This document shows positions 50,821 to 53,958 of a stretch of DNA of 64,000 nt, piece after piece. The stretch's first letter is position 1. Every line of letters starts with the position of its first letter. The notes beneath the pieces were generated by a model. The model had not been told where the DNA came from, did no database searches, and saw nothing but the letters and a program-made list of their open reading frames with translations. Source of the stretch: a virus (Duplodnaviria; Heunggongvirae; Uroviricota; Caudoviricetes); IMG/VR virus record IMGVR_UViG_3300008111_001118. One strand, 5' to 3'. A program made the translations under genes and the position numbers.

Positions 50821-50896
50821 TGGTTGCGGTGGGCAGGACTCGAACCTGCGATTTACTGGTTATGAGCCAGTCGAGATGCCGCTTCTCTACCCCGCA
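50821..50896 (-). tRNA. tRNA-Met/Ile2(CAT)
   Basis: D-stem GAGA/TCTC, anticodon stem ACTGG/CCAGT with loop CTCATAA, T-arm GCAGG-TTCGAGT-CCTGC; acceptor has one mismatch. Confidence 0.65.
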
Positions 50897-51397
50897 ATAA
50901 ACTTAACTAGTAGAACAGTCTCGGAAATGGAGTAGTCGCCTACAGCCAAATGGGTCTGTACTCGAAAACTGTTCAACTAGTTAAGTTAAAAGATATGCCA
51001 ATCCTCTTATCACTTTCCACAAACGGTACCGGTTTTTGAACTAACATATCGTTAAACTTAATTTTTGCATAGGCTGAGATTATGCCTTGCTGTAGGAGCC
51101 TTTGACCATTACCGTTAGCCTTGCGAGCCACGTTCTGTCGTTATCCACAAGAGCCTTTTACGGTCATCTTGTATCTCCCAGTGGTGCCTTTTTTGGAGAG
51201 TGGCGTTTCTCTCGTCGCACGTTGCTACTCGTCCTTCTATCCTTCGTCTGCCTTGCGAGCAGTTCACAGTCGCTAAACCGTTACGCTATCTTTCCGAACA
51301 ACTACATCAGCCTTGCGAGCATCCGTAGACCACATTCTCTTGCGAGTGTGGCATTAACCACCTTTCACAACGTACCGGGACAGTCTTTCGCTTTTGT

Positions 51398-51468
51398 TTA
51401 TCAAAGAAGGGATTGAACCTTCGCCGATTCCGTTCAATGGAATTGCTCTACCGCTGAGCTATTTGCGA
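51398..51468 (-). ncRNA. aberrant tRNA-like element (anticodon loop ATTGAAC = UGA anticodon, short variable arm, 2 mismatches in acceptor stem, no CCA)
   Basis: Good D-arm (GCTC-AGCGGTA-GAGC), perfect anticodon stem ATTCC/GGAAT, T-arm GAAGG-TTCAATC-CCTTC, but acceptor TCGCAAA vs TTTGATA pairs only 5/7. Confidence 0.4.
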
Positions 51469-52133
51469 ACCTACTTCGATGTGCTGTCCCAGTTGCTTCA
51501 CGTCTTGTTAGACGCAAAATACAACACACCGACTGTCTTTTGCCTTGCGGGCTACTCAACGTCTTTTTAAGTATCCGGGGCCTAACCCTTCCACTCTCAA
51601 GATGCTAACTTGCCTTTGCTTGCGGGCTCAGACTAGTTAACTACCTGTTAACTTTCAGCATTCGTTAGTTTGGCTGAACAGTGTTTGGGCGCCAACCCTC
51701 TTATCGCTCACCGACCGGCTCTGCGACTATCCTTTCGGACACTATTCCTAACTTACTGCCTACCGCCTTTCTACGGACGGGAGTTGCTTTCGGTACCCGA
51801 GTCAACTCTAGTTCAGGCTTGCTTAGATGGACCATTGCTGGCGCAAGTTTATAGGAAACCTTGCTTTGGGTGCATTACTGCACTTACCCTTACGTGGACG
51901 CTAAGCCGCCCATCTTACTGTGTTTACAACGATATATTGTTTATCTTATCGTCAGTCGATAGACATAGTGGTTAGCATTGCCATTTCAACTTATTGTCAG
52001 TAGCGTGTGGCCCTGTTGTTTCGCTAGGAACCACCCTAGTTACTTGACAGTGCTACTACCCAATATACCTGTGTAAACACAGTGTTTACCAAATTATCAA
52101 AGAGCGTGTAAACAACTTCTTGCTTACTTGTTT

Positions 52134-52162
52134 AATATAGTGCATGTTGCACCAAAGGTCAA
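52134..52162 (-). promoter_or_regulatory. sigma70-like promoter (TTGACC-N17-TATATT) firing leftward into the 1.3-kb ORF-free region
   Basis: Read from the sequence; copy 1 of a duplicated promoter-leader module (see 54979-55008). Confidence 0.55.
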
Positions 52163-52191: not shown

Positions 52192-52266
52192 TGGAGCGGG
52201 TAACGGGATTCGAACCCGTGACCTGGTGCTTGGCAAGCAGCCGCTCTACCCCTGAGCTACACCCGC
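52192..52266 (-). tRNA. tRNA-Gly(GCC)
   Basis: Acceptor GCGGGTG/TACCCGC, anticodon loop TTGCCAA, T-arm ACGGG-TTCGAAT-CCCGT, CCA encoded; one C-C mismatch in the anticodon stem. Confidence 0.7.
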
Positions 52267-52313: not shown

Positions 52314-52389
52314 TGGTGCCGGTAGAGAGATTCGAACTCCCCACCTGATGATTACTAATCAACTGCTCTACCAAATGAGCTATACCGGC
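52314..52389 (-). tRNA. tRNA with anticodon loop TTAGTAA (AGT anticodon, nominally Thr; unusual A34)
   Basis: Perfect acceptor GCCGGTA/TACCGGC, D-arm GCTC-ATTTGGTA-GAGC, T-loop TTCGAAT, CCA encoded; one T-T mismatch in the anticodon stem. Confidence 0.6.
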
Positions 52390-53093
52390 AAATTATTATA
52401 AAATGGAATAACCACATTTTCAGCAAATGCTTCGTGTTGTTTTCCTGAAGGATGATCATCTCCCGGTGTAGGAAAGTCGTTGGGCATGTTATCTCTAGAC
52501 CATTCGTAGCAACCCTTAACTGGTACAAATCTTGTCCAGTCTACCATTTCTTTTAAATATTCTGTTTGCATAGTATTGACATTACTCTCATCAAATGTGC
52601 TTTGATTCATATTACTAAAAAAGTATTTTATATTATTTACTTTCAAGTAATTTTGCAATCTTAGAATATTTTCATAGGTTCTGATTAAATCAAATGTGTT
52701 GTTTGTATAAATCTTATAATGATTCGTTGAAAATCGACTAGGAAAACTTGCATTAATCAATACCCATTTGCCTGCAGGATCATTTTTTGGCCACGCTAGG
52801 TGACTGGCTTCGGATATGTTTGGCTTTGATAATTGATTTAATACAAATGAGTTTTCTACATAAAATGATGCTCTGTTGGCAGCACTCCACATAACCCCAA
52901 CTACTATATCTTTCGATTCTACATTGTTTTTGAATAAATCATTAACTTGATAAATTGCACGTCTAGCGATATGCTCATTTCCATTACTGCCCAATCCCAT
53001 TGGGTAATGGGCATATTTCATTTTTTTTGCAAAATGAAAGGGCCAAGTATGATTGTCGTATGTAAATGAGCATCCGCTTGATACAAAGTGCAT
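52380..53093 (-). CDS. hypothetical protein (237 aa) embedded in the tRNA array
   Basis: ORF flanked by tRNAs on both sides; no recognised motif. Confidence 0.5.
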   Translation of the reverse strand: MHFVSSGCSFTYDNHTWPFHFAKKMKYAHYPMGLGSNGNEHIARRAIYQVNDLFKNNVESKDIVVGVMWSAANRASFYVENSFVLNQLSKPNISEASHLAWPKNDPAGKWVLINASFPSRFSTNHYKIYTNNTFDLIRTYENILRLQNYLKVNNIKYFFSNMNQSTFDESNVNTMQTEYLKEMVDWTRFVPVKGCYEWSRDNMPNDFPTPGDDHPSGKQHEAFAENVVIPFYNNLPV

Positions 53094-53870: not shown

Positions 53871-53958
53871 TGGCGGAAGCGGTGAGATTCGAACTCACGG
53901 TACCTTGCGGTACGCTGGTTTTCAAGACCAGAGCCATCAACCACTCGGCCACACTTCC
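53871..53958 (-). tRNA. tRNA-Ser(TGA), class II
   Basis: Acceptor GGAAGTG/CGCTTCC, anticodon stem CTGGT/ACCAG with loop CTTGAAA, long variable arm, CCA. Confidence 0.8.

Follow-up and report, generated by a model that had tools for sequence, protein, structure and literature searches.

The window, by which we mean the whole 64,000-nucleotide stretch of viral DNA that was analysed, carries on its minus strand a GOLLD RNA, inside which lies a tRNA-like element, and 17 other tRNA genes, all on the same strand as GOLLD. An encoded CCA and an intact acceptor stem are present in 17 of the 17 other tRNAs, the embedded element being the sole exception. ARAGORN calls a tRNA-Gly(GCC) upstream of GOLLD (52192-52266, minus strand) and a tRNA-Met(CAU) about 175 nt 3' of its end (50821-50896, minus strand), and the phage-like neighbouring genes include a DNA ligase and ClpP. 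The array also houses a 237-aa ORF (52380-53093, minus strand) with a DUF6071 match (E 3e-7), whose 3' end overlaps tRNA-Thr(AGU) (52314-52389) by ~10 nt. A search for a cultured close relative of the window's phage gave tRNA-sized matches only.

The Rfam model of GOLLD (RF02032) is matched by cmscan at 51071-51532 on the minus strand over its positions 1-416 of 416, without truncation, at 191.8 bits against a gathering score of 150 (E 1.6e-52). The less conserved 5' domain is also present, as conservation reaches ~400 nt upstream of the Rfam match (to ~51915-51928), and the approximate full extent of the RNA, 51058-51928 or ~0.87 kb, comprises this 5' domain, a hairpin, a linker with the tRNA-like domain and a 3' domain; its ends (~51915-51928 down to ~51058-51072) are inferred from BLASTN conservation with IMG/VR relatives and are not mapped. 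The phage context expected of GOLLD is seen both in the 17 same-strand tRNA genes and in the closest relatives of the region, which are IMG/VR viral contigs (L012 at 92%, L041 at 91%, L049, L052 and L070 at 80%, and L026, L015, L019 and L044 at 76-79% in BLASTN). In the cmscan alignment, the tRNA-like element occupies the unpaired linker between a conserved hairpin directly 5' of it (51532-51471, model positions 1-62) and the pseudoknotted 3' domain (51071-51380, minus strand), which is the most conserved part of the RNA. The element is not a free-standing gene but a tRNA-shaped module in the internal linker of GOLLD, and the putative long ncRNA in which the initial annotation had placed it is identified as this RNA.

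Found in phages and prophages, GOLLD RNA forms cages of 12-14 copies (Kretsch et al. 2025, PMC12286853), or of 10-14 copies when the review is included (PMC12286853, PMC12990946). Its two domains are separate structural units in the cryo-EM structure, with the linker as their only join, and in the cryo-EM of a tRNA-less GOLLD this variable linker is disordered and directed into the cage interior (PMC12286853). GOLLD ranks among the largest bacterial and phage non-coding RNAs and forms an RNA-only cage, its function having been a puzzle since 2009; the linker tRNA is the only part of it that resembles anything with a known partner. As to the surroundings of the RNA in the window, the interval that separates tRNA-Gly from the inferred 5' end of GOLLD contains a sigma-70-like site (TTGACC-17-TATATT, 52134-52162, minus strand), recognised by consensus match only (10/12 positions), and no terminator-like site was found 3' of GOLLD in the window. 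Two TTG-start ORFs of ~100 aa each run antisense to GOLLD (51102-51416 and 51670-51975, plus strand); they are almost certainly not genes, though an annotation pipeline could call them. A tRNA-Met(CAU) recurs downstream of GOLLD in many relatives, starting 11 nt past the GOLLD 3' end in L022, L024, L033, L035, L042, L046 and L058 and 176-226 nt past it in the window clade (window 50821-50896, L041 and L047), and the 3' end of GOLLD may be set by RNase P cleavage at this downstream tRNA.

The element itself is a class-I cloverleaf of 71 nt (51398-51468, minus strand), recognised by ARAGORN, by the Rfam tRNA model and by the family model R1 introduced below. Of the tRNAscan-SE and ARAGORN checks proposed by the initial annotation, that with ARAGORN calls a tRNA with anticodon tga at 51396-51469 (minus strand), and RF00005 matches 51398-51468 (minus strand) at 52.5 bits (E 2e-8 for the whole window), with pairs 2:71 and 3:70 marked as non-standard in the alignment. 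Read on the minus strand, the element consists of the 5' acceptor strand (51468-51462), the D arm (51459-51445, GCUC-AGCGGUA-GAGC), the anticodon arm (51443-51427, AUUCC-AUUGAAC-GGAAU), a variable loop of 4 nt (51426-51423, CGGC), the T arm (51422-51406, GAAGG-UUCAAUC-CCUUC), the 3' acceptor strand (51405-51399) and a discriminator A (51398). The anticodon UGA (51434-51436), established by direct reading and by ARAGORN, lies within the 7-nt loop AUUGAAC (51438-51432), in which U33 and A37 are canonical. All the nucleotides on which the tertiary fold depends are present (U8, A14, G15/C48, G18G19, A21, A26, G46, U54U55C56, A58 and the G53-C61 pair), and the cloverleaf and tertiary fold of a canonical elongator tRNA are recovered by RF00005, ARAGORN and direct reading. 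The acceptor end departs from the canonical form in two respects. Its strands, UCGCAAA/UUUGAUA by direct reading, do not make a fully paired 7-bp stem, since A72 (51399), U71 (51400) and A70 (51401), the 3' partners of the frayed outer pairs, face U1 (51468), C2 (51467) and G3 (51466), giving the mismatches C2.U71 and G3.A70; in addition, the discriminator A is directly followed by AACAAAAG, so that no 3' CCA is encoded. As these acceptor mismatches would lead one to expect, the acceptor stem is missing from the single-sequence minimum-energy fold of the element (z = -0.9, not significant).

The long variable arm of class-II tRNAs is the main element by which bacterial seryl-tRNA synthetase recognises tRNA-Ser, and the embedded element, with its 4-nt loop, lacks it. 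The 'Ser' label carries no meaning on a class-I body whose anticodon loop, as described below, changes freely while the scaffold stays the same. Every detail that the initial annotation gave of this class-I, UGA-anticodon element with a defective acceptor and no CCA is present in the sequence. The bona fide class-II tRNA-Ser(UGA) that it also reported is equally real: ARAGORN finds it at 53871-53958 on the minus strand, 2.4 kb from the embedded element, with a long variable arm, an intact acceptor and an encoded CCA, and its presence makes the embedded element redundant as a decoder of UCA. Copying of the anticodon arm from this tRNA-Ser by gene conversion was considered and rejected, the stems being CUGGU/ACCAG in the tRNA-Ser and AUUCC/GGAAU in the element.

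For comparison, we pooled 72 unique modules, all homologous, that come from metagenomes, viral contigs, cultured phages and two bacterial genomes. Among the GOLLDs of seven cultured alphaproteobacterial phages, six carry a module at the same place (DSS3_MAL1, MD18, phiCbK, Magneto, BL57 and Phosso) and one, that of DSS3P8, has none. A pattern scan of viral contigs yielded 74 IMG/VR loci, 21 of which carry a module at the corresponding place, in the form of a tRNA that precedes the GOLLD 3' end by 304-420 nt on the same strand, like that of the window; about two-thirds of viral GOLLDs are without a module. When bacterial genomes were scanned with the GOLLD 3' pattern, four real GOLLDs (L085, L098, L100 and L133) were recovered among 73 loci, the remaining matches being dismissed as chance matches, and modules are embedded in those of a Mycobacterium (L098) and a Pseudomonadales MAG (L133). 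A metagenome scan anchored on the module flanks added 53 unique modules, and the window's own module was found identical in four metagenome contigs (L166, four copies). The pattern of this last scan fixes part of the 5' acceptor strand, for which the sample is thus biased; the modules from viruses, cultured phages and bacteria, found independently of it, show the same acceptor trait.

Several features of these related loci deserve mention in their own right. In GenBank records MN602268, MT270409, NC_019405, JX100812 and PQ287320, the embedded modules are listed as ordinary tRNA-Arg, tRNA-Gly or tRNA-Lys and GOLLD itself is unannotated; GOLLD-embedded modules should not be reported as tRNA-Ser, tRNA-Arg, tRNA-Gly or tRNA-Lys genes. 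The evolution of GOLLD is also mosaic: the window shares a 98% identical 3' domain with L041 and L012, the module being only 71-75% identical, and an 86-87% identical module with L015, L019 and L026, the 3' domain being only 78-82% identical, which suggests, from sequence identity, either module exchange or very uneven rates. tmRNA genes directly adjoin GOLLD in several phages and in one Flavobacterium MAG (L001 3546-3980; L002 3713-4147; L007 2625-3046; L003-L005 about 1040-1550, on the opposite strand; L100 3185-3587), those of the alphaproteobacterial phages being two-piece or permuted; none was found in the window. Ordinary phage tRNAs with the amber-reading CUA anticodon occur in L049, L052, L070 and L077, the embedded module of L077 also having a CUA anticodon, and stop-codon recoding may take place in these phages.

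The structural conservation of the module was evaluated with a covariance model, R1, built from 21 modules, to which the modules were then aligned (alignment A2). An alignment of this kind is fitted to the model and favours structure; a separate arm-by-arm parse gives the same picture, and both were used in place of a MAFFT alignment (A1) in which the acceptor strands are misplaced in several rows. Against R1, family members reach 65-95 bits and ordinary tRNAs at most 62, with one exception at 69.9 bits (L068); the window module scores 86.4 bits, a match by construction as the window belongs to the R1 seed, and it lies at the linker position with both GOLLD flanks included in the match. In the 21 sequences, 97.6% of cells are paired in the D stem, 98.1% in the anticodon stem and 99.0% in the T stem, and the four inner acceptor pairs, ~98% paired, behave like the other stems. 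Changes on both sides are found in 19 of the 21 pairs of these modules, the double-change cells numbering 113 as against 35.8 in shuffles, and the covariation score is 0.714 as against 0.204, a value that 0 of 500 shuffles reach; in slid-partner controls, pairing drops to 28-53%. The tertiary-fold nucleotides are invariant across the family (alignment A1). The element is a structurally selected tRNA-like domain, whose L-shape core, formed by the D, anticodon and T arms and the inner acceptor, is kept by compensatory evolution.

The frayed acceptor end is likewise a conserved trait of the whole module family. At least one mismatch in the outer three acceptor pairs is found in 71 of the 72 unique modules, these pairs being standard in 35, 9 and 43 modules respectively and the inner four in 70-72; in the R1 alignment, the outer pairs are unpaired in 8/14, 17/21 and 12/21 sequences. 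The ordinary tRNAs of the same loci are of a different kind: an acceptor mismatch is present in 22 of 22 embedded elements as against 33 of 260 ordinary tRNAs, most of the latter being tRNA-Met with a 1:72 mismatch, a terminal CCA in 0 of 22 (ARAGORN-called) as against 163 of 260, and U33 is missing from 5 of 22 as against 8 of 260. Alanine identity conferred by G3.U70 or G3.A70, an idea that reportedly stems from an alanyl-tRNA synthetase result of the McClain laboratory in 1996, was examined and rejected, because G3 shows no preference for a partner, which is A, C or U in six cases each among the 36 distinct acceptor stems. At the 3' edge of the linker lies a conserved box, GCGAAAGACUG (51381-51391, minus strand, alignment A1), whose first five bases, GCGAA (51387-51391), complement UUCGC (51469-51465) of the 5' acceptor strand. 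Comparison at the same positions in L003-L006, L010 and L011 gave further examples of such complementarity (UUUGCG/CGCAAA in phiCbK and Phosso, UUGCAU/AUGCAA in L010, UUUGC/GCAAA in L011), and complementary runs of at least 5 nt between the two segments are present in 13 of 18 lineages and in 3.6% of shuffled strands. Such a helix has a register that differs by one position from lineage to lineage, and it competes with pair 4:69, which covaries. A hypothetical alternative helix between acceptor and box could explain the apparent mismatches of the outer pairs.

These comparative data bear directly on the possibility, raised by the initial annotation, that the element is a pseudo-tRNA, in other words a functionless tRNA gene decaying in a tolerant linker. 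Two acceptor mismatches, a missing CCA, an anticodon that does not fit the architecture and a loop that looks unconstrained on the window scaffold are what such decay would produce, and the label 'pseudo tRNA' has been used in the literature (PMC6582537). However, the orthologous modules keep their structure (97-99% stem pairing, 0 of 500 shuffles), compensatory changes preserve all but the outer acceptor pairs across GOLLDs that are only ~70% identical, the tertiary-fold nucleotides do not vary, and lineages independent of one another, Mycobacterium and the Pseudomonadales MAG among them, show the same defect in the acceptor. A decaying pseudogene is refuted by these observations, which include the excess of double-change cells over shuffles, under the criterion that the initial annotation itself had set, and we regard this explanation as very improbable indeed. 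The initial annotation had looked to orthologous loci for compensatory changes in the acceptor as a mark of function; such changes are found in the D, anticodon and T stems and the inner acceptor pairs, but the outer acceptor stays mismatched throughout the family.

The anticodon loop behaves quite differently from the stem that bears it. The 72 modules contain 42 distinct anticodon loops in 19 anticodon classes, and the invariant AUUCC/GGAAU stem of the window scaffold alone bears 16 distinct loops, among them AUUGAAC (window), AUUGAUA, AUUGAUAA, AUUUUGA, AUUUCCA, CUUCUAA and AUGCUAA; in the modules of phiCbK, BL57 and Magneto, the loop is the only difference. Non-canonical loops, of 8 nt, without U33 or with a pyrimidine at position 37, occur in 17 of the 72 modules. 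Ser, Leu and Tyr anticodons are borne by class-I bodies in embedded modules. Outside GOLLD, eight Leu-anticodon and two Tyr-anticodon tRNAs in L008-L081 are only 73-78 nt long, which is class-I length, so that unusual architectures are not confined to the embedded modules. Some loops are nevertheless conserved across divergent bodies: CUUCUAA recurs on six different anticodon stems and CUCUUAA on three, UUUAGG(A/C/U) is found on several stems with position 37 obeying normal tRNA rules, and UUGA is retained in the window, L041 and L012, whose module bodies have diverged and whose stems differ. This conservation argues that the anticodon is under selection in some lineages, which would also fit a decoding role. 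From the behaviour of the loop on the window scaffold, we infer that the anticodon UGA represents one of the states that this variable loop can take and does not specify decoding.

A decoding role is nonetheless the essence of one alternative, in which the module is a pre-tRNA stored in the GOLLD cage, later to be released by RNase P, trimmed at its 3' end, supplied with CCA by the host, aminoacylated and used in translation. The intact cloverleaf with all its tertiary-fold nucleotides, the canonical U33 and A37 of the window element and the loops conserved across divergent bodies under normal position-37 rules are all consistent with this scenario, and an 'inhibited storage' of an embedded tRNA-Phe has been proposed (review PMC12990946). 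It could also draw on a shared codon demand, as the embedded anticodon is found on an ordinary tRNA of the same phage at no fewer than 7 of 19 loci (P = 0.008 when permuting among loci), but this excess vanishes against the pooled phage tRNA repertoire (P = 0.23), and the 19-locus test includes the window and L012, which are mutually related. Against storage stand the outer acceptor mismatched in 71 of 72 modules and the CCA that is never encoded, unlike in most neighbouring tRNAs, as well as the class-I UGA body without the long arm needed by bacterial seryl-tRNA synthetase, the 17 of 72 loops unfit for normal decoding and the proper tRNA-Ser(UGA) already present in the window. Moreover, the embedded gene of M. 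aubagnense gave no tRNA-sized product (PMC6582537). We therefore hold the stored pre-tRNA to be unlikely, though it deserves some weight.

The embedded elements form one conserved family that preserves an L-shaped core, has a consistently disabled acceptor end and CCA and varies in its loop, a combination that argues against a simple stored tRNA and points to a tethered tRNA mimic. A tRNA mimic was one of the readings offered by the initial annotation, and it is the one that fits the comparative data on the module family. We propose that the module is a tethered tRNA-like domain of the GOLLD linker, maintained by selection, and not a released and charged serine tRNA, an interpretation that we consider probable. 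Every lineage lacks what release and charging require and yet keeps the L-shape, so that the domain most likely remains in GOLLD. According to this proposal, the module would not be a serine tRNA and would most likely be neither released nor aminoacylated, but would stay covalently part of GOLLD; the frayed end and the missing CCA would plausibly protect GOLLD from being cut in two by RNase P and the 3'-end enzymes, which process the flanking tRNAs of this array. By analogy with the cryo-EM of tRNA-less GOLLD and other representatives, each cage would hold 12-14 tethered tRNA-shaped domains in its interior, which may present their anticodon stem-loop to some tRNA-recognising partner. Among the points that weigh against this proposal, some functional tRNAs have mismatched ends and an unencoded CCA, so that excision by RNase P followed by CCA addition would also fit, and the loops shared by different bodies (CUUCUAA on six stems, CUCUUAA on three) would fit decoding.

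The opposite relationship to RNase P can also be envisaged, with the tRNA shape serving as a processing signal that recruits RNase P and/or a 3' endonuclease to split the GOLLD domains, the excised piece being a by-product. The module does lie exactly at the boundary of the two domains, these are separate and joined by the linker only in the cryo-EM structure (PMC12286853), and it takes RNase P to process the tRNA array that makes up the whole region. However, the roughly two-thirds of viral GOLLDs that have no module indicate that cleavage is not needed for assembly, a good acceptor stem would be expected of a cleavage site and yet this end is degraded in every lineage, and the conservation of the anticodon stems would be given no reason. 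We judge a processing signal to be improbable.

If the module is indeed a tethered domain, the behaviour of its loop in the aligned sequences suggests a putative anticodon-specific partner. It can be hypothesised that the module is a deliberately non-chargeable and non-cleavable tRNA mimic, displayed in 12-14 copies per cage that would serve an anticodon-specific host factor as decoy, sponge or docking handle, although we advance this more specific idea tentatively and consider it rather doubtful at present. The factor could be the ribosome, a modification enzyme or a defence nuclease that targets tRNAs, the specificity being set by the anticodon stem-loop. Were the decoy idea true, the switching of loops from lineage to lineage would record an arms race, and the module would offer a direct experimental handle on GOLLD function. 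The reading as a tethered tRNA mimic is directly testable, as the module has cultured carriers, namely phiCbK with Caulobacter and MD18 or DSS3_MAL1 with roseobacters.

Other systems combine a tRNA fold with a larger RNA or with phage tRNA arrays. The tRNA-like structures at the 3' end of viral genomes (TYMV TLS) and the tRNA-like domain of tmRNA resemble the module in being a tRNA fold within a larger functional RNA. They differ in their terminal position on the RNA, in having or gaining a CCA and in becoming aminoacylated, whereas the GOLLD module is internal, without CCA and with a mismatched acceptor end; tmRNA, furthermore, has no anticodon arm, and that of the GOLLD module is complete. 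Mitochondrial tRNA punctuation and the mascRNA of MALAT1 share with the module an internal cloverleaf in a long transcript and a context processed by RNase P, but their acceptor is cleavable and demonstrably cut, whereas that of the GOLLD module is systematically weakened and has no known cleavage product. The phage tRNAs that escape anticodon nucleases (van den Berg et al. 2023, PMC10264068; Azam et al. 2024, PMC11555353) are comparable in their location in phage tRNA arrays and in their anticodon-loop variation. These are free, chargeable tRNAs that replace cleaved host tRNAs, unlike the GOLLD module, which looks non-chargeable and tethered, and a link between the module and tRNA-targeting defence is at this stage a conjecture.

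The closest counterparts are the tRNAs of GOLLD linkers themselves, which have been described before (Kretsch et al. 2025, PMC12286853; review PMC12990946, citing Morgado 2020). A tRNA-Phe has been noted in the linker of a Mycolicibacterium GOLLD, with the proposal of 'inhibited storage' (PMC12990946), and the gene embedded in that of M. aubagnense was termed a pseudo-tRNA, northern blotting having given no product (Behra et al. 2019, PMC6582537). The window element is like these tRNAs and pseudo-tRNAs in its RNA family, its linker position and its phage tRNA array, and nothing essential differs; the Mycobacterium GOLLD in our collection (L098) has a frayed acceptor end as in the window. A tRNA-shaped module in the GOLLD linker is a known kind of feature, of which the window element is another member. 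The family-wide outer mismatch, absent CCA and variable loop are not stated in PMC12286853, PMC12990946 or PMC6582537, the sources compared here (Weinberg 2009 and Morgado 2020 lying outside the comparison), and the description of a disabled acceptor end and a variable anticodon loop throughout the family may be a useful addition to the published record.
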